Assembly (NCBI GenBank): GCA_964399675.1
Contig: CAYNRK010000001.1
Coordinates: forward strand, 64,424 to 128,423
Direction of reading: 5' to 3'
DNA length: 64,000 nucleotides
Source: an uncultured Gammaproteobacteria bacterium
GTDB taxonomy: Bacteria; Patescibacteriota; Patescibacteriia; UBA9934; GWF2-40-263
Below, one piece after another: positions 7,544 through 57,391 of this stretch. The translations under genes and the position numbers were made by a program. Under the pieces are notes generated by a model, which did no database searches, was not told the DNA's origin, and saw nothing but the letters and a program-made list of their open reading frames with translations. Positions within the stretch are counted from its first letter, which is position 1, and every line of letters begins with the position of its first letter.

Positions 7544-7620
7544 GGGCATGTAGCTCAGGTGGTTAGAGCGCATCCCTGATAAGGATGAGGTCGGAGGTTC
7601 GAGTCCTCCCATGCCCACCA
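7544..7620 (+). tRNA. tRNA-Ile (anticodon GAU)
   Basis: Cloverleaf with acceptor GGGCATG/CATGCCC, anticodon loop CTGATAA, T-loop TTCGAGT, encoded CCA. Confidence 0.9.
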
Positions 7621-7625
7621 CAATT

Positions 7626-7700
7626 GCCGAGGTAGCTCAGTGGTAGAGCAGTGGACTGAAAATCCACGTGTCGAGAGTTCAATTCTCTCCCTCGGCACCA
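7626..7700 (+). tRNA. tRNA-Phe (anticodon GAA)
   Basis: Acceptor GCCGAGG/CCTCGGC, anticodon loop CTGAAAA, T-loop TTCAATT, encoded CCA. Confidence 0.9.
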
Positions 7701-7916: not shown

Positions 7917-9415
<1,499 letters not shown>

Positions 9416-10268: not shown

Positions 10269-10318
10269 ACTAGATCAAAGAAAAAAAATCAGCTATGCTA
10301 GTCATAGTTGATTTTTTT

Positions 10319-11017
10319 ATGAAAAACAAAAAACTACAATTTGACGTGATAACTATCTTTCCCAAAATGATTGATTCTTATGTTTCTGAGTCGATTCTTG
10401 GCCGTGCTCAGAAAAAGAAGTTGATTAAAGTTAAGGCTCACAACTTACGTGATTTTACTTCAGACAAACATAAAACAGTTGATGACACACCTTATGGTGG
10501 CGGGCCTGGCATGTTGATGAAAGTCGAGCCTTTTGATAAAGCAATTAGAAAAATTAGAAGTTCCCCCCTTTTCAAGGGGGGATCAAGGGGGGTTAGCAGT
10601 AGGAAAAAAACTCGAGTCATTATCACTTCGGCTTCTGGAAAAACATTCACTCAAAAAGATGCAAAGCGTCTTGCCAAATATGACCAGCTAATTTTTCTTT
10701 GCGGCAGATACGAAGGAGTTGATCATCGTGTTGAAGAGAATCTTGCTGATGAGTCATTATCAATTGGGGAGTATGTGCTAACAGGAGGGGAATTGCCAGC
10801 GCTTGTTATGATTGATGCAATTTCAAGAATGGCGCCAGGTGTTTTAGGTTCAAAAGCTTCGCTTGAAACAGAGTCACATTCAAAAGAAGGCTTGCTTGAA
10901 TATCCTCAATTTACCAAACCGGAAGTTTACAAAAAAATGAAAGTTCCAGAAGTGTTGCTTAGCGGACACCATAAAGAGATTGAGAATTGGAAGCGCAAGC
11001 ACGAGCATAATAAATAA
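10319..11017 (+). CDS. trmD: tRNA (guanine37-N1)-methyltransferase TrmD, with a 14-aa in-frame insertion from a GC hairpin element
   Basis: FDVITIFPKMI..., YGGGPGM, LFLCGRYEGVDHRV, LSIGEYVLTGGELPA motifs; start set at the Met preceding KLQFDVITIFP. Confidence 0.88.
   Translation: MKNKKLQFDVITIFPKMIDSYVSESILGRAQKKKLIKVKAHNLRDFTSDKHKTVDDTPYGGGPGMLMKVEPFDKAIRKIRSSPLFKGGSRGVSSRKKTRVIITSASGKTFTQKDAKRLAKYDQLIFLCGRYEGVDHRVEENLADESLSIGEYVLTGGELPALVMIDAISRMAPGVLGSKASLETESHSKEGLLEYPQFTKPEVYKKMKVPEVLLSGHHKEIENWKRKHEHNK
10561..10597 (+). repeat. GC-rich hairpin mini-element (C6-N7-G6...GGGGGGTTAG) inserted in-frame in trmD
   Basis: TTCCCCCCTTTTCAAGGGGGGATCAAGGGGGGTTAGC; near-identical copy at 57023-57060, related copy at 20725-20762. 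Confidence 0.6.
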
Positions 11018-12462: not shown

Positions 12463-12957
12463 CTAAGCAGCAGCTCGCCTACGGTTGAGTTGGGCAAATG
12501 CTTTTGCCCAGTTTTTGAGCGAAACGTACTTTGGGTCGTAACCGCCCGAGCAGTTTGCGTATGCTCCACCTCCAGGATAGGGAAGGTGCTCTGTCATCAG
12601 GACTGATCGACGAGCTTCTTCATCCTCGCCAATCTGTTGACAGATGATCATTCCATTCATGTACCGATCAATCCCCATGAGCTGACCGGCCGTGTACAGA
12701 ACGATCCTGCGAACGTTGCGGCGGTAGGCTGTTCCCGCGAGCATTATTCCGCACGGAGAGTTGTTGTCAGAGTCTGGCCTCTCCTTGATCCAGGGATCAA
12801 CCATGATCGCTTCGATTGCCTCATCCGTGTCCGCTTTGGATCGGACGTATGCAACCGCTTCTGTGTAGTTGTCAAAGACGACCACGTCATGCTCAGGCAT
12901 TTGTTCTTGTGCTGCCTGGAGTTGGCGCGGATTGCAATCAACCACGAGAATGCGCAT
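12463..12957 (-). CDS. Hypothetical protein with receiver(REC)-like N-terminus (GC-rich islet)
   Basis: AGGAGGA SD 4 nt before the ATG; MRILVVDCN...VVVFDNYTEAVAYV resembles a CheY-like fold start but is degenerate. Confidence 0.4.
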   Translation of the reverse strand: MRILVVDCNPRQLQAAQEQMPEHDVVVFDNYTEAVAYVRSKADTDEAIEAIMVDPWIKERPDSDNNSPCGIMLAGTAYRRNVRRIVLYTAGQLMGIDRYMNGMIICQQIGEDEEARRSVLMTEHLPYPGGGAYANCSGGYDPKYVSLKNWAKAFAQLNRRRAAA

Positions 12958-13011
12958 GAGTCCTCCTATTAAAAAAAGCGTCTTCCAACAGAAAAGACGC
13001 ACTGAACCAAC

Positions 13012-13040: not shown

Positions 13041-13230
13041 CGATCGCTTGCGCGACGTATTCAGGTTTCCGTTCGCATCTTTCCCAAATGGGTTTGGATT
13101 TCGCACCTTATCTTTTCAGACAGGTTGCGGGCAGTTCATAGGGCCAATTCCCTCACTGCACTCTGAATACGTTTTCTTTAATTGTATTTAAAAAATAACA
13201 GGGATCAACTTTTTTGTCAATCCCTGAAAT

Positions 13231-13671: not shown

Positions 13672-13812
13672 AATTTGATATTATTTTGTCATTTTGAGCA
13701 GTTGACGATGTTCGGATAATAATGGATTAAAACAAAAAAGTCAATATACGTTTTTGTGTTTTGACAAGACAAGATATTTAGCTAACTTTAGTCAAATAAC
13801 TGTCCGTAGCTC

Positions 13813-13841
13813 TTGACAAACTTGCCAAAATGTGATATAGT
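13813..13841 (+). promoter_or_regulatory. Consensus sigma70 promoter of an orphan transcript
   Basis: TTGACA-17 nt-TATAGT. Confidence 0.45.
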
Positions 13842-13849
13842 AATGCGCG

Positions 13850-14005
13850 TAAAGGTAAAACAGACCTTAAAACTAAAACGTTTGGGGAGAGAGACCTAAA
13901 TCGTTCCGCTTACTTAAAAGTAAGCGATTATCTGGTATTTCCAGATAAAAAGCCGATTATTGGGTATTTCTTCCGGAAATGCCTAGTAGTCGGCTTTTTC
14001 GTTGA
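13850..14005 (+). ncRNA. Candidate small structured RNA (three hairpins, terminal T-run)
   Basis: Hairpins GCTTACT/AGTAAGC, TATCTGG/CCAGATA, AGCCGA...TCGGCT followed by TTTTT; only an 18-codon ORF inside. Confidence 0.3.
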
Positions 14006-14082
14006 TTGAGCAATGAAAGTTTCTGATAATCAGTTTCAGTGATTTTCACCGCTCAACCAACGGCACCAAAGGAGCCAACACC

Positions 14083-14697
14083 ATGCGGACCTTCAAGCTT
14101 CTGGCACTCGGTTACATCGCGATTCTCGTGACCGTGGGCCTGACCCACGAGTACGAGAACACGGCCGCCGCCGCTCCCGCCGCGACCACGGACACCGACC
14201 TGTCCGGGTCGGTCATGGCGAGCCTGGTCCTGCACCAGGCCGCAACGAACGGAGTCGGGCCCGTCATGCTCGCCATCGCCACTCCCTCCGTCACCGCCCT
14301 GACCGTCGACTCGGAGCCTCACGACGCGCACATCGCCGCGTACTACGAGCAGGCCGAGGACCACGACGCGCACGTGCGGGAGTACTACTCCCAGAACAGC
14401 GCCAGCGCCGACGCCGAGGAGACCGACGCCGAGGTCATGACCTTCACCGTGGCCGAGGTCGAGCTCGGGTCCGACCTCCACGGAGAGGGCGAGATCGAGG
14501 TCGTCGACCTCGACGAGGTCTCGGGTTCGGAGATTCCGGGCTTCGAGATGGTCGTGGGGGAGACCGAGCAGGTCGAGCTCACCGAGGACGACTTCGCGCC
14601 CGAGCTGAGCGCCACCGTGGTTGCCTCGGTCAGGCCCGGTCTGGAGCAGGTCACCTTCTCGGAGACCCGCGCCTCGGAGCTGCTCGGCTGGCAGTAA
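14083..14697 (+). CDS. Secreted/membrane-anchored acidic hypothetical protein (GC-rich island)
   Basis: AGGAG SD 8 nt upstream; N-terminal TM/signal; D/E-rich; GC ~65%. Confidence 0.5.
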   Translation: MRTFKLLALGYIAILVTVGLTHEYENTAAAAPAATTDTDLSGSVMASLVLHQAATNGVGPVMLAIATPSVTALTVDSEPHDAHIAAYYEQAEDHDAHVREYYSQNSASADAEETDAEVMTFTVAEVELGSDLHGEGEIEVVDLDEVSGSEIPGFEMVVGETEQVELTEDDFAPELSATVVASVRPGLEQVTFSETRASELLGWQ

Positions 14698-14749
14698 CGA
14701 CTCGGGCAATTCTGCCCACTCGGGCCGGTCCACTCTGGATCGGCCCGCT

Positions 14750-14789
14750 CACCTGAGACTTTGAACAAAGTTCGAAGCATCAGGTGAGG
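14750..14789 (+). repeat. Island hairpin repeat R (CACCTGAG...TCAGGTGAGG), copy 1
   Basis: Identical 40-bp core again at 15235-15274; variants at 15741-15837, 16710-16747, 17789-17828. Confidence 0.7.
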
Positions 14790-14829
14790 CTCAACCCGTA
14801 CTGCATCAGGCAGATTAGAGAGAGGCACC

Positions 14830-15156
14830 ATGGATTTCGAAGGGAATTGCGACAAGTGCGGCCAGCCCGTGGCCGCTGGCAACAACCTGCTGATCGTGGG
14901 ATTGGTTGCCAAGAGAATCACCAACCACGGAGTCGACTACGACCCGGCAGACTGTGACGTGTGGGACCTCACCGTAGGGTTGTCCCATCAGTCGCGCCAC
15001 TTCCTCCCGACCGAGGAGGGGTGCGAGGGGTCGCCGAGCCGGGCTCAGTACATCGAGGGACAGCCGCGCGACATGCGAGGGTTCTCCTACGACCCCGACA
15101 AGGAGGCGCTGTTCCGCGCCGCTTACGCACGGGTCAAGAGCGGTCAGCCCTACTAA
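14830..15156 (+). CDS. Hypothetical Cys-containing protein (GC-rich island)
   Basis: SD GAGAGAGG before ATG; follows repeat R copy 1. Confidence 0.45.
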   Translation: MDFEGNCDKCGQPVAAGNNLLIVGLVAKRITNHGVDYDPADCDVWDLTVGLSHQSRHFLPTEEGCEGSPSRAQYIEGQPRDMRGFSYDPDKEALFRAAYARVKSGQPY

Positions 15157-15234
15157 AAAAGCAACCGCGTTCGAGCGCGGTAATCGAGCCGTGCTCGAAC
15201 CCACCTCAGGTCAAGTTATGCTTCTTGGCCACCC

Positions 15235-15274
15235 CACCTGAGACTTTGAACAAAGTTCGAAGCATCAGGTGAGG
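15235..15274 (+). repeat. Island hairpin repeat R, copy 2
   Basis: Exact repeat of 14750-14789. Confidence 0.7.
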
Positions 15275-15293
15275 CAACCATAAGAGCGAGAAG

Positions 15294-15443
15294 ATGGAAT
15301 TCATCGTAATCCTCGCAGTGTCGAGTCTGGCCTGTGCCCTCGGTCTTCGGCTGATCAAACCTGAGCATCGACATCCCATCCACCCCGAGGTCACGGTTTC
15401 GTTCGATACGGATGGAAACGCGGTCTTCACACCCAAGCAGTAG
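15294..15443 (+). CDS. Small membrane peptide (49 aa)
   Basis: Short ORF directly after repeat R copy 2 with an N-terminal hydrophobic helix. Confidence 0.25.
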   Translation: MEFIVILAVSSLACALGLRLIKPEHRHPIHPEVTVSFDTDGNAVFTPKQ

Positions 15444-15450
15444 GAGGTCA

Positions 15451-15597
15451 GATGACCTTTTTCAAGAACCTGTTCGATTCGATCCGTGCATTCTGCACCG
15501 GCGAGGTTCGGACGATCTCGGTGGCATTGCTGCCGTTCGAGACCACCACCAACGACGACCGGCTCATCTGGCTGCCGGTTCCGAAGAGGAGGAAGTA
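15451..15597 (+). CDS. Small hypothetical peptide (48 aa)
   Basis: GGAGG SD 3 nt before the ATG. Confidence 0.25.
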
Positions 15598-15687
15598 GTG
15601 CCGATCGAGCTCGTGTTCACGGTTCTGGGTGCGTCGGCTGTGGTGGTGTTCTGCACCCTCGCCGCCGCGCGTCTCCTCAACTGGTAG
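15598..15687 (+). CDS. Tiny TM peptide (29 aa)
   Basis: GTG start after AGGAGGAAG; single TM helix; immediately followed by repeat S. Confidence 0.2.
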   Translation: MPIELVFTVLGASAVVVFCTLAAARLLNW

Positions 15688-15837
15688 TACAATGGGAACG
15701 TACTACTCACAACAACCTGCCGGACTTCCCATCCGGCTTTCACCTGAGAGTTTAAATCAGGTAGCCCAAGGCTTTAGCCTTGGCGAAAACCGACACTAAA
15801 GTGTCGGGCTACCAACAAGTTGAACTTTCAGGTGAGG
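15686..15837 (+). repeat. Composite structured repeat (module S + elaborated R)
   Basis: GTACAATGGGAACGTACTACTCACAACAAC..GCCGGACTTCCCA.CCGGCT.TCACCTGAGA shared with 17735-17790; R arms enclose nested hairpins CCAAGGCTTTAGCCTTGG and CGACACTAAAGTGTCG. Confidence 0.65.
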
Positions 15838-16709
15838 AATCAACCACAGCCGGCCACGTCCCGCAACACGACGGAGGCGGCTGTACAACTGCAAAGGGAG
15901 AAGTTTGATGCGAGGCAGAAAAAGGAAGCGCTAGAAACTTATTATCCGTCTAGCGTGGATCTGACCTGTAAAAAGGGTAGGGATGATAAACGTACCATGC
16001 GTAGGTAGGTAGCAGAGAGTGGGGAACGGAAAATCGTCATGACTGAGCAGAAGCTCTACGGCGGTGGAACAAGTACGAAGCGAGGCTGCAACCTATCTCC
16101 CTTTTCATCACGTCCCGGCGGCCTTCTGATGTGGTCGCCCGGAAACGCGTGATAAGGACGTAAAGCATGGGAGACAATGAATCGCCAACGTCTCAAACCC
16201 GCGTTCGCGGGAGTGGTGAGCTGGTAATGCACTGGAGAACAGTGGGGATGTCGTTTTAGGGGAAGCGCACGGAAAAATCACTTGATCGTGCGTGGATCAT
16301 ACCAAGGTGGTCGGTGTAGCATGCGAGCTTGAGTGCAGAGAGTTAGGAAAGGGCTTGCCTTAGTACGAAGCAAGGCTGCAAGGTCACGGAGACCGCGGGT
16401 CCGATGAGGGTCCGTATCAAGCTCATTGAAGTGTATCAGTACCCATTCTGAGCATTTCAAGACATCGTAAGGGTCGCGCTAGAGCATGCAAGGCCAAAGT
16501 TCGTTGAATCCTTTGAGGATCGAAGCACTCCGAATTGAGATCAAAGAGTGCAGCGATCCAATACGAACAACCGGGGTTTTTGTGGATTCCCTCGGCCCGC
16601 AAGGGATATAAAGAACACTCCTGCCGTGGAGGTCAATAGGCAACTCGGCACGTCGCTCGCGAGCGACGTGCTCGGCGGCGGGGATCCAACTCAGATCCTC
16701 GCCGCCATT

Positions 16710-16747
16710 CACCCGAGTTCTCGAGCTTGCTCGAGTATTCAGGTGAG
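16710..16747 (+). repeat. Island hairpin repeat R variant
   Basis: CACCCGAG TTCTCGAGC-TTG-CTCGAG TATTCAGGTGAGG. Confidence 0.55.
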
Positions 16748-16768
16748 GCAATCCGACAAGGAGGTCTA

Positions 16769-16991
16769 CGTGAGACGAGTCATTAGTGGGTTTTTTGCTC
16801 TTCTGGCGATAGCATGCATGGTCTTCGGAGGAGTTTTCCTCTGGGGGATGTGCATCGCCTACGGGCCAGCAGCAGACGCTGCGGTCGGGCCAGGCGAGCC
16901 TGGTCTTCTCCAGTGGGGGATCCTCTTCGGTCTTCTTGGTGGAATGGGCCTGTCCGGCTTCCTGAGCTGGCTGATCCACCCCGACACCTGA
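16769..16991 (+). CDS. Small membrane protein (~74 aa)
   Basis: GTG start after AAGGAGG; two TM helices, Gly-rich. Confidence 0.35.
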
Positions 16992-17017
16992 TGCCCTCCA
17001 ACAAGAAGACAACCAAG

Positions 17018-17152
17018 CCGGAGTGTGCGAGCAAGAGTTCTCCTCTCCGGTACTAATGGTGACGAAGACGTTGTTACCATTATCCCACAAAGCTCTAAGC
17101 TGTGTGGGATCTTCAAATGATTTCTTGAGCAATCTCGAGATATCAGGTGAGG
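17018..17152 (+). repeat. Composite intergenic structured unit U (4 hairpins), copy 1
   Basis: CCGGAG..CTCCTCTCCGG hairpin, covarying hairpin, CCCACAAAGCTCTAAGCT.TGTGGG hairpin, terminal ..TCAGGTGAGG; paralogues at 18418-18549 and 19181-19302. Confidence 0.7.
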
Positions 17153-17187
17153 TAAGATTAGTGGATCACGTCAAGGAGCAGCGTAAA

Positions 17188-17703
17188 ATGGAGACCCTCA
17201 AGCTGATGATTCGTGTCATGATCTTGGTCGCGATCGGAGTAGTTTCGTTCCTGCACCTTGTGCACTCTGTGAGTGTGCCGGGAACGATCGCGATGTACGC
17301 CTCCTACGACATCGTGGTCGACGTGCCCAACACATTCCACTTCGTGTTCTGGTGGTGGGGTTCGATGGCTGCCCTGATCCTGGGTTCGATCCTGATCACG
17401 GGCCAGGAAGAGTACTTCCACAACATGCCTCGAAGCTACAGGATCTTCTTCAAGGTCGTGTTCTGGACAAACCTGGTCGCGTTTGCGGTCAACACTGGAC
17501 AGTTCGTGATCGCGGCAGAGCAGTGGATTCCGTATCCGCTGAGCTCCTTCGCGACCAGGATGAACATCTTCAGGCAGCTTTTCATGGGCTGGGCAAGTTT
17601 GATCCTTGGCTTCGCGGCCCTTCTGGCCACGATCAAGCCAAGGATCAGCCTGGCAGAACCCTGTGCGGTCGTGCTCGACCTGTTCGAGTGCCTCGAGGAG
17701 TAG
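17188..17703 (+). CDS. Polytopic membrane protein (~171 aa)
   Basis: AAGGAG SD 9 nt upstream of ATG; 4-5 TM helices. Confidence 0.5.
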   Translation: METLKLMIRVMILVAIGVVSFLHLVHSVSVPGTIAMYASYDIVVDVPNTFHFVFWWWGSMAALILGSILITGQEEYFHNMPRSYRIFFKVVFWTNLVAFAVNTGQFVIAAEQWIPYPLSSFATRMNIFRQLFMGWASLILGFAALLATIKPRISLAEPCAVVLDLFECLEE

Positions 17704-17734
17704 CCAGCTCCGCGGTTCGCGTTCTGGATCTGTA

Positions 17735-17828
17735 GTACAACGGGAACGTACTACTCACAACAACTCGCCGGACTTCCCACCCGGCTCTCACCTGAGATCT
17801 TGAGCAAGACTCGAGGCATCAGGTGAGG
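17735..17828 (+). repeat. Module S + R repeat, copy 2
   Basis: Near-identical to 15686-15750 followed by CACCTGAGATCTTGAGCAAGACTCGAGGCATCAGGTGAGG. Confidence 0.65.
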
Positions 17829-17937
17829 ACGTAAAGTGCCTGGCGGCACCACGTCCCAAGGGGAACATCTTGTTCCATAAATTGGGCATCCTCTGCCTGT
17901 CGGTTTGTACACCACAAAAAGAGGAAAGGAGAGATAC

Positions 17938-18396
17938 GTGAACAAGCGTCTTATCGTGCTCGCAATGAGCACTCTCGTCATCGTCAGCCTCTGCTTCGCG
18001 TGGAGCATGCTGAACCTCATCTACACCGGAGAGTTCTTCTTCGTGGAGGACGGCAGCATCTACCGGAGCCTGTCGAACCCGTCGATGGGGCTCGTGCTGA
18101 TGATTCTCCTCACCATCGTCGGGCGTGCCGACAAGGAGAAGTTCGGGTACAGGGCACGAGACCGACTCTACCTGGCTCAGGGGCTGAGCACGTGGCTGGT
18201 GTTCGCTACCATGGCGTTCGGCTCTGGTCTGTTGTGTTGGCTGACCCAGTTCCACCGGCTGAACACCACGAACGTGTTCGTGGAACAGTTCGCGGTGTGG
18301 GGCGTCCTGATCACACTGGGTCTGTCCTACTGCCTCTACCGCTTCAAGCCGGTTTGGCCGCAAGGTCTGACCTGGACGGTAATCACCGAGCGGTAG
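17938..18396 (+). CDS. Polytopic membrane protein (~152 aa)
   Basis: GTG start after AAAGGAGAG; 4 TM helices. Confidence 0.5.
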   Translation: MNKRLIVLAMSTLVIVSLCFAWSMLNLIYTGEFFFVEDGSIYRSLSNPSMGLVLMILLTIVGRADKEKFGYRARDRLYLAQGLSTWLVFATMAFGSGLLCWLTQFHRLNTTNVFVEQFAVWGVLITLGLSYCLYRFKPVWPQGLTWTVITER

Positions 18397-18417
18397 GAGA
18401 GCAACAACAACATCGAA

Positions 18418-18549
18418 CCGGAGTGTGCGAGCAAAAGCCTCCTCTCCGGTACGAACAGTGACGAAGACGTCGTCACTCTTATCCCACAAAGCTCTAAGCT
18501 ATGTGGGATCCTCAGACGAGTTCTTGATTAGTCAAGTATTCATCTGAGG
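18418..18549 (+). repeat. Composite structured unit U, copy 2
   Basis: Same four-hairpin organisation with compensatory substitutions (AGTGACG/CGTCACT; CCTCAGA/TCTGAGG). Confidence 0.7.
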
Positions 18550-18586
18550 GTAATTCTGCCCAGACAACACGGAGGGGAAAAGAGAA

Positions 18587-18931
18587 ATGGAACCGAAATA
18601 CGAGATCGTGCTCACAACGCTTTTCGTCTGGGGCGGAAGCCTGTTGCTGTTCTTGCTCTACCGGCTCTGGCCGCACCTGATCAGTGCCTTTCTGATCATC
18701 TACTCGGTCTTCTTGAAGGGGGCTGGAGCTGGACTGGTCTTTCTCGCGGTCGTCGGGATCATGCTCTCAGAACTGTCCTTCGCGGGCAACAAAACTCAAA
18801 TCAACCCAGACTTCTACTGGGTTATCGGGGCGAGTCTGCTCACATTCTTGCTGGCAGCTCTGGAGTCCTACCTGGTTATCAGGATCAACCGTAGGTCCGA
18901 GAAGCACAACAGGCTTTGGGACGTGCGATAA
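18587..18931 (+). CDS. Membrane protein (114 aa)
   Basis: GGAGGGGAAAAGAGAA-ATG; 3 TM helices. Confidence 0.5.
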   Translation: MEPKYEIVLTTLFVWGGSLLLFLLYRLWPHLISAFLIIYSVFLKGAGAGLVFLAVVGIMLSELSFAGNKTQINPDFYWVIGASLLTFLLAALESYLVIRINRRSEKHNRLWDVR

Positions 18932-18935
18932 GGAG

Positions 18936-19163
18936 GTCCTTGTGAGAAGGATGCTGTTCATCATTCTGGTCGCCCTGGCGATCGGGAGTTACGCTGTCGA
19001 GATCTTCATGGTCATTGACATGGCCAAGCTTTTCCCGGAGACGATCGTCAACTGCGGAGAGCAATGTGAGCCGGGAAAGCCGTTGTTCAACACGAATTTC
19101 GGCTTGGGCACCGCGTTCCTGCTCTTCGGCTCGTTGAGCTTTTGCGCTTACACCAAGCGCTGA
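18936..19163 (+). CDS. Small membrane protein with CxxC (..CGEQCEPG..)
   Basis: GTG start after AAGGAGG; two TM segments. Confidence 0.4.
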   Translation, partial: VLVRRMLFIILVALAIGSYAVEIFMVIDMAKLFPETIVNCGEQCEPGKPLFNTNFGLGTAFLLFGSLSFCAYTKR

Positions 19164-19180
19164 ACTCAAGCCGAGTCAAA

Positions 19181-19302
19181 CCGGAGGAGCGGGCGTGAGT
19201 TCTCCTCTCCGGCATTGTTGCCTAGCAACAATCTGTCCCACAAAGCTCTAAGCTATGTGGGATCCTCAGATAAGTTTTTTATCAAAGAAAATTTATCTGA
19301 GG
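19181..19302 (+). repeat. Composite structured unit U, copy 3
   Basis: CCGGAGGAGC...CTCCTCTCCGG; ATTGTTG/CAACAAT hairpin; CCCACAAAGCTCTAAGCTATGTGGG; CCTCAGATAA/TTATCTGAGG. Confidence 0.7.
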
Positions 19303-19320
19303 AAAAAATAGGGGGAAGTC

Positions 19321-19656
19321 ATGGTGCACGGTAGTACCACCGTAGAACAGTTGAGTTCACTCGTTCTGAACATCATGGTGACCGGCTGGGTTGTTGTCAA
19401 GAACGACAGCGGCGCAGACCTGTTTTCCATGACGTTCGGAGATGAGATCGAACTCGCATCCCCAAAAGGGAAGATCAGTGTGATCGCTGACGACACTGGT
19501 CTGGGTGCTGACGTGGAGGGTCAGCACGTAAGACTCCGCTGGGGCAAAAACGAACTCGGGCCTTTCACGGTCTGGTTCATTCCCACTGAGCGCAGAGCAA
19601 CGCTGATCGCTTTGCATCTGAGCCGTAAGCTCGGGCGCATGGTGTGCGTTCTCTGA
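19321..19656 (+). CDS. Hypothetical soluble protein (111 aa)
   Basis: SD GGGGGAAG before ATG; last gene of the GC-rich island. Confidence 0.45.
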   Translation: MVHGSTTVEQLSSLVLNIMVTGWVVVKNDSGADLFSMTFGDEIELASPKGKISVIADDTGLGADVEGQHVRLRWGKNELGPFTVWFIPTERRATLIALHLSRKLGRMVCVL

Positions 19657-19783
19657 CAGTTGGCAGCGAGGCAGGACACGACATCCTGCAGCGCCCCCAT
19701 AGCTCCGAAGGAGCAACGGGGGCCCTCACCTAAGTCGTTACCTCTCTGTGGCGACTAAGCTGAGGGGAGCTCGTTCCTTAAAT

Positions 19784-46049: not shown

Positions 46050-46829
46050 ATGATCGGTCATGATGGAAGTGTTCAGATCCCAGCACGCGCGATTCGAAAA
46101 GCGCGTAGAGCGCTTTCAACTCACGCCGAGCAAGTAGTGCGAGTGCTCGAGCAGTTCGAGACCATGGAGTTTGTTGATCCAATCCAGCTCTTTCAACTTG
46201 CAAGCAACAACACGCTTTCGTTCATAGCTTTCTCGTGCTTGGCAACAAAACGCGGTAGCGAGCAGATCATCCTTGAGCTGAGCAAGACGTTCTTCTTCCG
46301 CTCAAGTCGTTTTCTAAAGCAGTGGTGCACTCTATGCGAAGCACTCAATGAGTTGGGGGTTAGCACAAACCTCACAGTCTTTCTTCCCGACCTTGAGCCT
46401 AGGCGAACCTGGGGATGGCAACTCGGCCAAGACGAAATCACCTTGGCTTGTGAGTTGATGGCCGAAGAGGCAGAGGGGTTTCGCAATCAAGGTGTAGTTG
46501 TCAAGCCGTGGTCACAAGTCGAAGAATTCAATCAGGTTGGATTTTTGCAAGCACAAGAGCTGATCGGGGATAAAGCTCCATTGCTTGTTCATCAGGAAGC
46601 TGAACTCTTGAGATCGTTTCCTGAGATTCAGCTTGTTGGCACATACGAAGAAGCTGCAACACGACAGGTGGCCAGCTATGCACACGAAGGACGAGTTCTT
46701 GAGGAGCAGCTTTCAAGTGTGATCCTGCTCCAGTCTGAGCGACCCCCAGAGCGGAAGGATCGCATGTATCAACGTTTGCGCAAAGTGCCGCTACCAATCG
46801 TTCATCCGTTCGATCTGTCCAGGAGGTAA
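46050..46829 (+). CDS. Hypothetical protein (GC-rich islet)
   Basis: Strong SD GAAAAGGAGGGACTC-ATG; GC ~52-55%. Confidence 0.5.
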   Translation: MIGHDGSVQIPARAIRKARRALSTHAEQVVRVLEQFETMEFVDPIQLFQLASNNTLSFIAFSCLATKRGSEQIILELSKTFFFRSSRFLKQWCTLCEALNELGVSTNLTVFLPDLEPRRTWGWQLGQDEITLACELMAEEAEGFRNQGVVVKPWSQVEEFNQVGFLQAQELIGDKAPLLVHQEAELLRSFPEIQLVGTYEEAATRQVASYAHEGRVLEEQLSSVILLQSERPPERKDRMYQRLRKVPLPIVHPFDLSRR

Positions 46830-50180: not shown

Positions 50181-50263
50181 TGTCATTGCGAGGAGGCTCG
50201 TTCGACGGGCCGACGCGGCAATCCTCGTATACGAAGATTGCTTCGCTAGCGCTCGCAATGACA
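50181..50263. repeat. MITE-like palindromic element (GTCATTGCGAGG / GCTCGCAATGAC TIRs)
   Basis: GTCATTGCGAGGAGGCTCGTTCGACGGGCCGACGCGGCAATCCTCGTATACGAAGATTGCTTCGCTAGCGCTCGCAATGAC. Confidence 0.65.
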
Positions 50264-53838: not shown

Positions 53839-53940
53839 CCTCCTCTTGCGTCATTGCGAGGAGGCCCGTTCGACGGGCCGACGAAGCAATCTTCGTACAC
53901 GAGGATTGCCGCGGCCCGTCTGACGGGCCTCGCAATGACA
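53839..53940. repeat. MITE-like palindromic element (GTCATTGCGAGGAGG / CCTCGCAATGAC TIRs), internally duplicated core
   Basis: Two internal copies of the GGCCCGT.CGACGGGCC motif between canonical TIRs. Confidence 0.65.
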
Positions 53941-55771: not shown

Positions 55772-55834
55772 AATTATTCTGTTTTTGTTTCCTCTTTGAT
55801 TTCTTCTTCCTCTTCTTTAACTTTTTCGCCCAGG

Positions 55835-56992
55835 CTAAAGCCTTGGGGCTACCTCATCAGATCCATCTTCAACCCCTCCTCCCTTTTCTACCTTTTCCTC
55901 CTTTTCTCCCCCAATTCCCTTCAACGACAATCCAAGACGGTGGTCCTTTGGTTCAATTGAGACAATTTTGAAGTCCATTATTTGTCCCGGCTTTCCAATT
56001 GTTGTTACATCAGCAACCGGTTTGTCTGAGAGTTCTGAAACATGAGCAAGGCCATGAATTTCAGGATCAAGCTCCACAAAGAATCCAAATGGATTGACTT
56101 TGAGAACGGTTCCTTTAACAGTGTCACCGGTTTTGTATTTTTCTTGTACATTTGCCCATGGGTCTTCAATGAGTTTTTTCATTGATAAGAAAATTTTGCT
56201 TCCTTCAAGACCAATGATTTCAGCTTTAACGGTTTGACCTATTTTAAGTAGATCGCGAGGATGATCAATTCGTTGCCAGGCAATCTCACTGATGTGAACA
56301 AGCCCTTCAAGTGAATCAAACTTTACAAATGCTCCAAAATCGGCAACAGCAGTTACTTCACCTTCAATAACGTCTCCCACAGTAAATTTTGAAATAACAT
56401 TTTTCTGCGCATCTTCCCAAACGGTTTTTTCAGAAACAATCAGCTTTTCATCATTTTCATTTACATCAATAACACGCACGTTCATTTTTATACCAATGTA
56501 AGATTTTAGCTTTTCAAGAATTTTGTTTTTGTCACCACCACTCACACGTGGATAGTGTTCAGGGGAGAGTTGGGAAACAGGCAAGAATCCAGAGATGTGA
56601 TTGATTCGAACAATAAGACCACCTTTGTTTGCCTCCAAGATTTTTACATCAACTGTTTCACCAGTGGTGTAGAGTTCACGCAAAGTCTCCCAGGCTTTTA
56701 GTTGTCCTGCAAAACGGAATGAGAGCTCCATTTCACCGTTTTCGTTTTCAAGATCAATAACAGTTGCTTCCACTTCTTCGCCGGGTTTTAGATTGCCGTA
56801 CTCAGAGGACTCAGCAAAAAGTTCGCGTCCGCGCACAACACCTGTTGTAATGCCATCGATGTCAACACGCACTTCGCGTCTACCTGAACCAATGATTTTT
56901 CCTTGAACAACATCTCCGACTTTAGGGATGTTTAAATAAGATCCCTCCTCAATGAGTTTTTGAAACTCAGTTAGTGTTTGAGTATCTGTCAT
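55835..56992 (-). CDS. S1 RNA-binding domain protein (ribosomal protein S1-like, ~4 S1 repeats)
   Basis: Repeated G.V.G.V...FGAFV.. S1 modules; start set at MTDTQTL because the upstream extension runs into the GC hairpin. Confidence 0.8.
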   Translation of the reverse strand: MTDTQTLTEFQKLIEEGSYLNIPKVGDVVQGKIIGSGRREVRVDIDGITTGVVRGRELFAESSEYGNLKPGEEVEATVIDLENENGEMELSFRFAGQLKAWETLRELYTTGETVDVKILEANKGGLIVRINHISGFLPVSQLSPEHYPRVSGGDKNKILEKLKSYIGIKMNVRVIDVNENDEKLIVSEKTVWEDAQKNVISKFTVGDVIEGEVTAVADFGAFVKFDSLEGLVHISEIAWQRIDHPRDLLKIGQTVKAEIIGLEGSKIFLSMKKLIEDPWANVQEKYKTGDTVKGTVLKVNPFGFFVELDPEIHGLAHVSELSDKPVADVTTIGKPGQIMDFKIVSIEPKDHRLGLSLKGIGGEKEEKVEKGGGVEDGSDEVAPRL

Positions 56993-57022: not shown

Positions 57023-57060
57023 TCTCCCCCTTTTCAAGGGGGAGCTAGAGGGGGTTAGGC
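57023..57060. repeat. GC-rich hairpin mini-element, intergenic copy
   Basis: TCTCCCCCTTTTCAAGGGGGAGCTAGAGGGGGTTAGGC; near-identical to the trmD insert. Confidence 0.6.
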
Positions 57061-57271: not shown

Positions 57272-57347
57272 GGGCCTGTGGAGGTAATCGGTAACCTCGA
57301 CTAAGTTGACGCTAGTAGCTGCCGGTTCGAATCCGGTCGGGTCCACC
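57272..57347 (+). tRNA. Atypical tRNA-like gene (anticodon UGA, C37), copy 2
   Basis: GGGCCTG-TG-GAGG-TAATCGGTAA-CCTC-G-ACTAA-GTTGACG-CTAGT-AGCT-GCCGG-TTCGAAT-CCGGT-CGGGTCC-A-CCA; ~85% identical to 28239-28314 rc. Confidence 0.55.
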
Positions 57348-57391
57348 ACGTAAAGCCAGCTAAGCTGGCCACGTGGTAAACCAATGGCCCG

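Follow-up and report, generated by a model that had tools for sequence, protein, structure and literature searches.

How does a GC-rich hairpin come to lie, with the reading frame kept, inside essential genes of an AT-rich bacterial genome? The question is raised by a stretch of 64,000 nucleotides (nt) from an uncultured member of the Patescibacteria (contig CAYNRK010000001.1; the whole stretch is called the window below), in which a sequence-only reading had pointed to three GC-hairpin sites, two of them in frame in trmD and smc and one intergenic; all three were confirmed by sequence and translation. The sites hold copies of a dispersed element family, and what is copied is the DNA itself and not a conserved loop of the protein; copies with the same loop and tail lie at many unrelated loci and in both orientations. 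We estimate a probability of about 0.6 that the family is a non-autonomous DNA replicator of Uhrbacteria and other Patescibacteria, resembling the repetitive extragenic palindromic (REP) sequences and filtered to permissive loops. Copy 1, of the TTTTCAA-loop type, occupies positions 10562-10596 of the forward strand (T C6 TTTTCAA G6 ATCAA G6 TTAG), in frame within trmD; copy 2, of the same type, is non-coding and lies at 57023-57058 of the forward strand (TCT C5 TTTTCAA G5 AGCTAGA G5 TTAG); copy 3, of the TGCCCGA-loop type, is found in frame within smc at 20723-20760 of the reverse strand (T C7 TGCCCGA G7 TTA G7 TGGGAG). Common to the three is a C run, a 7-nt loop of the form T.....A, a complementary G run, a short spacer and a second G run, the spacer being 2-7 nt long and often YTAG, and the tail being TGGGAG or TTA(G) according to subfamily. 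Copies 1 and 2 had been described as near-identical, of which the shared loop and GGGGGTTAG tail held up and the near-identity did not, the spacer and run lengths being unlike and the identity about 80% by eye.

The three sites are not explained by chance. The tail motif GGGGGTTAG occurs four times in the window against an expectation of 0.14, and the pattern CCCCC-N3-12-GGGGG gives seven matches at four distinct sites where 0.06 matches are expected. The fourth GGGGGTTAG, at 46355, is a chance match without a hairpin, and hairpins at 19794 and 33364 were set aside as ordinary terminator-like structures followed by T runs. No further copy was found in a listing of all C or G runs of at least 5 in the window, or in ~18 kb of extra flanking sequence from the same genome, giving a density of 3 copies per ~82 kb examined. 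When folded as single-stranded DNA, copies 1 and 2 form 9-bp hairpins of -9.6 kcal/mol (z = -3.4) and -11.6 kcal/mol (z = -3.2), respectively, and in the smc copy the C run is able to pair with either G run. Intrinsic termination was rejected as a reading of copies 1-3, in which a second G run and not a T run lies 3' of the hairpin. No Rfam family matched the element at the gathering threshold, and nothing credible was found around copies 1 and 2 up to E = 5. Outside a few GC-rich islands, the window has a GC content of ~39%.

Copy 1 resides in trmD (10295-11017, forward strand; PF01746; PDB TrmD match with E = 1e-61), and for its product the best relatives with a name come from Candidatus Uhrbacteria and other Patescibacteria; the genome behind the window is that of a Candidatus Uhrbacteria member. 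The insert amounts to 13 codons (SSPLFKGGSRGVS; 10559-10597, 39 nt), keeps the reading frame and appears as a clean 13-residue gap in alignment with the solved TrmD 8byh_A. It had been placed between the two conserved halves of the protein; in an AlphaFold model it is found in a different position, between helix 77-89 and strand 106-117 (residues 94-101 with pLDDT <50), which makes the site a predicted helix-to-strand loop inside the N-terminal domain. Across 27 aligned Uhrbacteria TrmDs this loop is highly variable in length and minimal in many, and the closest orthologue (77% identity) has no insert and a loop sequence unlike the element. Four versions were found in the loop (here and below, labels in L denote loci and labels in P proteins): the TTTTCAA type of the window, a TGCCCGA type (L005, L264), a compensatory CCCCCTCC/GGAGGGGG type (L007) and an inverted copy (L008). 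In the window copy, TTAGAAGT (10554-10561) and TTAGCAGT (10593-10600) stand directly on either side of the 31-nt core; they match at 7/8 positions, and 31 + 8 nt make up the 39 nt of the insert. This flanking repeat resembles a target duplication, yet it is absent from every other copy or family member.

Copy 3 allows the conservation of the DNA to be separated from that of the peptide. Its host, smc (19960-22212, reverse strand; Pfam SMC_N/AAA_23), encodes a short form of the protein of 750 residues in which the Pfam hinge domain found no match, and the insert (codons SPPARGGVRGGGS, 20722-20760, reverse strand, frame kept) lies immediately before the conserved YPEIQRLRYKLELIGGIDPE motif of SMC. 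The translations SSPLFKGGSRGVS and SPPARGGVRGGGS bear out the frame-preserving Gly/Arg/Pro-rich linkers that had been proposed. Between the window and the smc gene of L251 (GCA_016205995.1, 56% GC), 37/39 nt of the element are identical and third codon positions agree at 12/13, whereas outside the element the two genes share 65% protein, 61% nucleotide and 32% third-position identity. One of the two differences within the element changes a residue, V to A. By our own binomial estimate, the probability of at least 12/13 third-position matches at p = 0.32 is ~1e-5. Since the element is identical at 37/39 nt while third positions elsewhere agree at 32%, it is the DNA at this site that is conserved or re-copied, not the peptide. 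Two further smc copies, in L249 and L283, keep all three runs at identities of 31/39 and 33/39, with the loop and spacer altered in the former and the spacer altered in the latter.

Most of 119 aligned SMC orthologues, the sister group of the window protein included, carry nothing similar at this site. That the inserts are lineage-specific, as had been suggested, is supported by these alignments, many Uhrbacteria TrmDs and most of the 119 SMCs being without one. In a neighbour-joining tree of the 119 SMCs, built with the insert region removed, pristine copies are found in at least three separate clades (the window protein; P0141 with P0155; P0140 with P0135), each with element-free sister taxa, and other clades show graded, decayed remnants such as RPPSQGGLQEV, RPHSQGGQQGV and RPNAQTLQS. 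P0155 has the element and P0197 lacks it; the two SMCs are 91% identical, and between them the 39 nt of the element replace 24 unrelated nt that the element-free P0197 shares at this site with the outgroup P0202; in this close pair, then, the element was not simply added to the gene, as the sequence-only reading had it. The smc copy of L250 (7064-7165) is a mosaic in which the 5' half is partly duplicated, a 29-nt foreign segment interrupts the first G run and the GGGGGGGTGGGAG tail is duplicated, which suggests a nested insertion or recombination between copies. The SMC of P0197 itself carries a different in-frame hairpin insert of 33 nt, read as SGGAGSGLHVG. Another Patescibacteria SMC homologue, P0167, is 1220 residues long and matches PF14528 and PF14890, which we take to be LAGLIDADG and intein-splicing domains; if so, this SMC holds an intein.

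Copy 2 is the non-coding member of the set. It lies antisense to rpsA, the gene for ribosomal protein S1 (55835-56992, reverse strand; S1 domains in the translation), in the 5' leader ~31 nt upstream of the probable ATG at 56992. A mechanically listed open reading frame (ORF) starts at a TTG within the hairpin loop of this copy, which is unlikely to be a real start. TTTTCAA-type relatives were found elsewhere: an element near-identical to copy 2 is present in a Mur ligase gene of the patescibacterium JBDRLV01 (L135), where reading of the opposite strand gives LTPSNSPLKRGRI, and an almost identical unit, CT-C5-TTTTCAA-G5-AG-TTAGA-G5-TT, occurs in a metagenome-assembled genome of Campylobacterales (L154). 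About 210 nt from copy 2, ARAGORN called a second tRNA-Ser(TGA)-like sequence (57272-57348, forward strand), overlapped by a mechanically listed ORF; it scored 33.7 bits with Rfam in a local scan and is missing from the list of the whole-window scan.

A complete scan of the JGI metagenome contigs for C6-TGCCCGA-G6 returned 68 stretches, of which 31 are unique full elements, in contigs of 41-59% GC; the bare 19-mer also occurs in high-GC contigs in unrelated contexts. With these 31 copies, and with the TTTTCAA type recurring in the Mur ligase gene, the motif is not limited to the three occurrences of the window. The smc-variant copies read T, C6-8, TGCCCGA, G6-7, spacer, G6-8 and WGGGAG, with T at position -1 in 30/31, and information content falls to background directly beyond the leading T and after GGGAG. 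No flanking or target motif was found among the 31 unique copies, no terminal inverted repeats were found in the element, and the target-site duplication that the sequence-only reading had proposed to look for was not seen above expectation at any boundary offset. Two subfamilies can be distinguished, one with C7/G7 runs, a YTA spacer and a length of ~38 nt, and one with C6/G6 runs, an ANNNA spacer and a length of ~37 nt, a member of which (L309) has an ATCAA spacer identical to that of the trmD copy in the window. Loop and tail covary, TGCCCGA occurring with TGGGAG and TTTTCAA with GGGGGTTA, which is the pattern expected if whole units are copied. An element length divisible by three had also been looked for; the unit, at 35-40 nt, is not a multiple of three, and only the net change in the gene is.

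About 25 of the metagenome copies lie in frame inside genes, mostly Pfam-matched and in both orientations, host genes being called from Pfam matches of the stop-to-stop ORFs that span the elements. The hosts of the smc variant include enzymes of metabolism and a peptidase (Peptidase_M16, the pyruvate phosphate dikinase PPDK, adenylosuccinate lyase), proteins of repair and chromosome maintenance (UvrA, UvrC, UvrD, and SMC at two further loci), tRNA-related proteins (TrmD, class I tRNA synthetases, ThrRS, MiaA) and others (glycosyltransferases of GT2, the thymidylate kinase Tmk, Memo, APH, DUF4349 and a methyltransferase); outside the Pfam scan, L283 appears to be the smc of P0141. In at least 10 cases the element lies inside the Pfam envelope, and the copies of L254 and L300 lie near the ORF start and may precede the true start codon. 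The encoded peptides vary with orientation and frame (SPPARGG.RGGGS, PPLPEGGLGGVG, LPPPL.PPRAGG, PTPLNPPSGRG), and in YTAG variants 4/6 frames are open.

The hairpin itself is more widespread. Among the matches listed, the bare hairpin CCCCCTTTTCAAGGGGG was found in Cyanobacteria (many), Myxococcota, Planctomycetota, Poribacteria, Gammaproteobacteria, Campylobacterales, Bacteroidota, Clostridia and Patescibacteria. In the same set of listed matches, a third run of the right polarity follows within 14 nt in 94/118 unique hairpins, compared with 8-16/118 in control windows, and in other phyla the units are often arranged as inverted pairs with 10-50 nt between them, as in REPINs. The general C/G-run architecture is common in viral contigs (at least 120 matches), the GC-rich ones among those listed carrying the same unit with other loops, and the smc-type hairpin found no match in viral contigs. 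A separate motif, acctCCCCCTTT(T/C)AAAGGGGGTGAGGGGGatat, is conserved in L010, L014, L019, L021 and ~25 other viral contigs from phage of ~40% GC, and could be a conserved leader, or a conserved regulatory hairpin, with no relation to the Patescibacteria element. The C-run/loop/G-run/G-run unit, seen among the matches listed in Patescibacteria, Cyanobacteria, Proteobacteria, Campylobacterota, Planctomycetota and phage contigs, could conceivably represent an unnamed multi-phylum superfamily of hairpin replicators with a new mode of propagation, a proposal that we regard as speculative and unlikely. If it were true, such repeats would propagate without duplication, overwrite locally and re-home to the same sites, their engine would be an unrecognised enzyme or a universal host function, and copies would stay pristine for very long in essential genes of minimal genomes.

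Two other hairpin families share the window with the element. REPs of the GTAG type (GGTAGC-CCNNGGC-TTTA-GCCNNGG) are found at 15760-15784 (forward strand) and at 15789-15813, 24526-24551 and 55828-55854 (reverse strand); those at 15760 and 15789 form an inverted pair, and those at 24526 and 55828 overlap the 3' ends of ORF 24499-26460 and of rpsA, the latter encoding the final residues DEVAPRL and the stop codon of rpsA. A third family, GGCCCGT-NNN-ACGGGCC within ATTGCGAGGA...GCAAT, has copies at 19902-19918, 24426-24442, 50186-50227, 53863-53879 and 53913-53929, mostly just after genes, and a decayed copy in frame in smc (~20362-20400, reverse strand; SLRGAEGDEAIP, read as ASLRGAEGDEAIP). 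In another patescibacterium (L006, ~2547-2580), a GTAG REP (gtaGGGACGCCATTTATGGCGTCC, peptide GTPFMASA) fills the TrmD loop in which the window has its C/G element, and a second TrmD loop of that gene contains a C/G element. On the contig of P0197, from a related Uhrbacterium (L320, 4374-4990), a gene for a 156-residue protein just downstream of smc scores 97 bits with NCBIfam NF047646, 'REP-associated tyrosine transposase' (RAYT; cut-off 80), and GTAG REPs, as GTAGCGGAAGGCTTTAGCCTTCCATG repeats of both orientations, lie on either side of it. A tblastn search of the window and of all other loci collected by then for Y1/RAYT genes returned only this gene itself. The REP-RAYT machinery therefore exists in the lineage, tied there to another repeat.

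Further features of the window lie apart from these repeats. A GC island of 6 kb (~13700-19900) reaches 55-60% GC in the 39% GC genome, with smaller GC-rich stretches at 26-28, 42-48 and 56-60 kb; its ORFs 14053-14733, 17023-17703 and 17788-18489 have no Pfam match, and the genes called there on L001 and L002 have no Pfam match on record. A 16S rRNA gene (7918-9415, reverse strand) has no adjacent 23S rRNA gene, and tRNA-Ile and tRNA-Phe lie alongside it (7544-7700, forward strand). A SAM (S-box) riboswitch (13072-13173, reverse strand) is found upstream of a 179-residue ORF (12463-13002) without a Pfam match.

If the family is a REP-like replicator, new copies would arise continually at the DNA level and old ones would decay under AT-biased mutation. 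Insertions would mostly hit genes, coding density looking high in the window and related loci, and the survivors would be those that are in frame, free of stops and placed in tolerant surface loops or coiled-coil breaks, where they would be read as Pro/Gly/Arg-rich linkers; slippage in the three homopolymer runs would offer an easy route to restoration of the frame. Such a filter on frame, stops and tolerance would account for the repeated use of the same few loops, and the recurrence of sites fits a high input of insertions followed by filtering and equally fits re-homing or gene conversion onto older remnants. The likeliest candidate for the engine, though a tentative one, is a host-encoded enzyme that would act in trans on hairpins of single-stranded DNA, to which the hairpin structure and the lack of a duplication point. 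A RAYT-type tyrosine transposase (HUH/Y1) would fit, since enzymes of this kind make no duplication and the lineage has one. Ectopic gene conversion would probably refresh decaying copies and replace local sequence, a contribution suggested by the replacement between P0155 and P0197 and by the L250 mosaic. REPIN-RAYT systems are reported to persist by vertical descent for very long (10.1101/2021.07.10.451892, PMC8049555), and pristine copies in diverged lineages are thus the pattern to be expected.

Several observations weigh against this account. The copy number in this genome is modest (3 in ~82 kb), the spacer is not conserved in the C6 subfamily, a target motif is lacking, and the replacement seen in P0155 and P0197, the only close pair with and without the element, is not predicted by simple cut-and-paste or copy-and-paste. 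No transposase was seen with the element, and the only RAYT, that of L320, is flanked by the different GTAG REP. An unpaired GTAG or CGTC tetranucleotide at the end of the stem is the defining feature of described REPs (PMC3733652), and the element, which ends T...WGGGAG or T...TTA(G), is without this tag. The metagenome contigs are mostly of unchecked taxonomy, the breadth across phyla (genome contigs and the first viral contigs) is a sample and not a census, and present-day mobility is not shown without strain-level filled and empty alleles.

The replacement of 24 nt by 39 nt between P0155 and P0197 is what would be expected if the repeat were spread and maintained mainly by ectopic gene conversion or templated patch repair from other copies, or from transient DNA or RNA, and not by a transposase: a break or gap in a tolerant loop would be repaired off another copy, overwriting local sequence and resetting decayed copies to consensus. 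The absence of target-site duplications and of a target motif, the re-occupation of the same sites in diverged lineages, the presence of different subfamilies at one site and the nested, duplicated mosaic of L250 are likewise in its favour, and the GC clusters of yeast mitochondria are reported to spread and recombine in this way (PMC8811140). However, conversion requires flanking homology, which many different host genes as fresh sites do not offer, a tract of 37 nt whose arms are homopolymers makes a poor substrate for recombination, and conversion alone leaves the arrival at new loci unexplained; as the whole account it seems to us unlikely. Selection for a functional nucleic-acid structure at each site, acting as a switch on the replication, transcription or translation speed of the hosts, would have the C run pair with either G run, as folding predicts, and the G-rich half of the smc type, G7 TTA G7 T GGG, could form a quadruplex or triplex. 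Conservation at the nucleotide level with a non-synonymous change tolerated, the retention of the runs in L249 while loop and spacer vary, and a three-run architecture kept across phyla among the matches listed would all agree with such a role. The element nonetheless stands in both orientations in unrelated host genes without a functional link, one copy is intergenic and antisense to rpsA, decay is graded, Rfam holds no match and quadruplex potential is weak in the G5 and G6 variants. With orientation, frame and host arbitrary, and with the element lacking from most orthologues, a role that is only structural or regulatory is quite improbable.

Two more mundane explanations fare worse. Were the inserts ordinary protein loops, selected as Pro/Gly/Arg-rich (RGG-like) linkers with the DNA similarity as a by-product, the occurrence of similar peptides (SPPARGG.RGGGS) in flexible regions would be accounted for. 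However, the agreement of third positions at 12/13, compared with 32% in the rest of smc, and the V to A change run counter to this, an AT-rich genome would not encode Pro and Gly by runs of CCC and GGG, different peptides arise as the DNA is read in several frames and in either orientation, and one copy is non-coding, so that this explanation is effectively refuted and its chances are very slight. Errors are known to arise in homopolymer runs of G and C, and poly-G read artefacts or another fault of sequencing or assembly might be suspected for that reason. The same TrmD with its insert recurs, however, on 16 contigs of four independent origins (JGI, ENA, Logan and NCBI assemblies), and the insert is therefore no assembly artefact; gene sequence is intact on both sides with the frame kept, related copies occur in many independent assemblies, and error can practically be dismissed.

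The REP-like replicator favoured here was set beside the known families of small repeats. With REPs and REPINs, the element shares the character of short (20-40 bp), GC-rich hairpins dispersed in both orientations without target-site duplication and occasionally in frame, as in uvrA and uvrB; GTAG REPs with a RAYT occur in this lineage, and C/G-run inverted pairs in other phyla. It differs in that its stem is a pure homopolymer followed by a second G run and a subfamily tail, in that the Patescibacteria copies are singletons and mostly intragenic whereas REPs are mostly extragenic and often inverted dimers, and in that no cognate RAYT flanked by the C/G-run element was found. MITEs have terminal inverted repeats, target-site duplications and a parent insertion sequence. 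The element resembles them as a small non-autonomous repeat, but none of these three hallmarks was found for it; of the 'REP/MITE-like or mini-insertion' behaviour first proposed, the REP-like and mini-insertion parts are therefore supported and the MITE-like part, for want of terminal inverted repeats and target-site duplication, is not. RPEs belong to Rickettsia, and those of the RPE-1 type are roughly 100-150 bp long. Like the element, they are palindromic repeats in frame at permissive sites in housekeeping genes of a small AT-rich genome; the element is 35-40 nt long with C/G homopolymer arms and is found in Uhrbacteria, and is set apart by size and host. RPE-1, -4 and -6 are cited as palindromic elements within genes, and Opitutus terrae and Rickettsia conorii provide documented cases of REPs and RPEs lying in frame, notably in the DNA-repair genes uvrA and uvrB (PMC3733652). 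In-frame landing in essential genes had been called unusual, which it is, though with these cases in other bacteria it is not unprecedented.

The GC clusters of yeast mitochondria are GC-rich palindromes, a few tens of bp long, in a very AT-rich genome, some in frame in var1; they have fast-changing loops, merge and shuffle, are regarded as mobile, and have terminal AG/TAG repeats that are read as target duplications (PMC8811140). As GC-rich mini-elements in frame in genes they are comparable to the element, and the merged copy of L250 has its counterpart there, but they are organellar, and an AG/TAG-like flanking repeat is not general here, being confined to the trmD copy (TTAGAAGT, TTAGCAGT). 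The byp elements of Magnusiomyces are skipped by the ribosome; the element shows no sign of bypassing, and none is suggested because the frame is kept. The SDRs of Nostocales, treated by Elhai et al. in 2008, are reportedly 21-27 nt long, dispersed, apparently mobile and in some cases in hairpins, and in this they resemble the element; among the matches listed, many C5-loop-G5-G5 units are also cyanobacterial. The element works like REPs, RPEs and GC clusters yet belongs to no described family among those compared (REPs, RPEs, MITEs and GC clusters), the tag and the extragenic position of REPs and the duplications of MITEs and GC clusters being absent. Rickettsia and yeast mitochondria are known for 'selfish DNA in protein-coding genes', of which the element would by analogy be a bacterial equivalent.

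The small, streamlined genomes of the candidate phyla radiation (CPR), or Patescibacteria, are usually said to hold little mobile DNA, and no report of REP-like elements in Patescibacteria was found in the literature. At least three hairpin repeat families are present here, one of which lives mainly inside essential genes. Its runs of C6-8 and G6-8 readily give rise to frameshifts and can lead gene callers and alignments astray. The element suggests a concrete origin for many lineage-specific loops and insertions in CPR proteins, and its copies form a natural map of insertion-tolerant sites in TrmD, SMC, the Uvr proteins and tRNA synthetases. A near-identical element within a gene saturated with substitutions extends the idea of the persistent REPIN replicator to a new phylum and to coding DNA.

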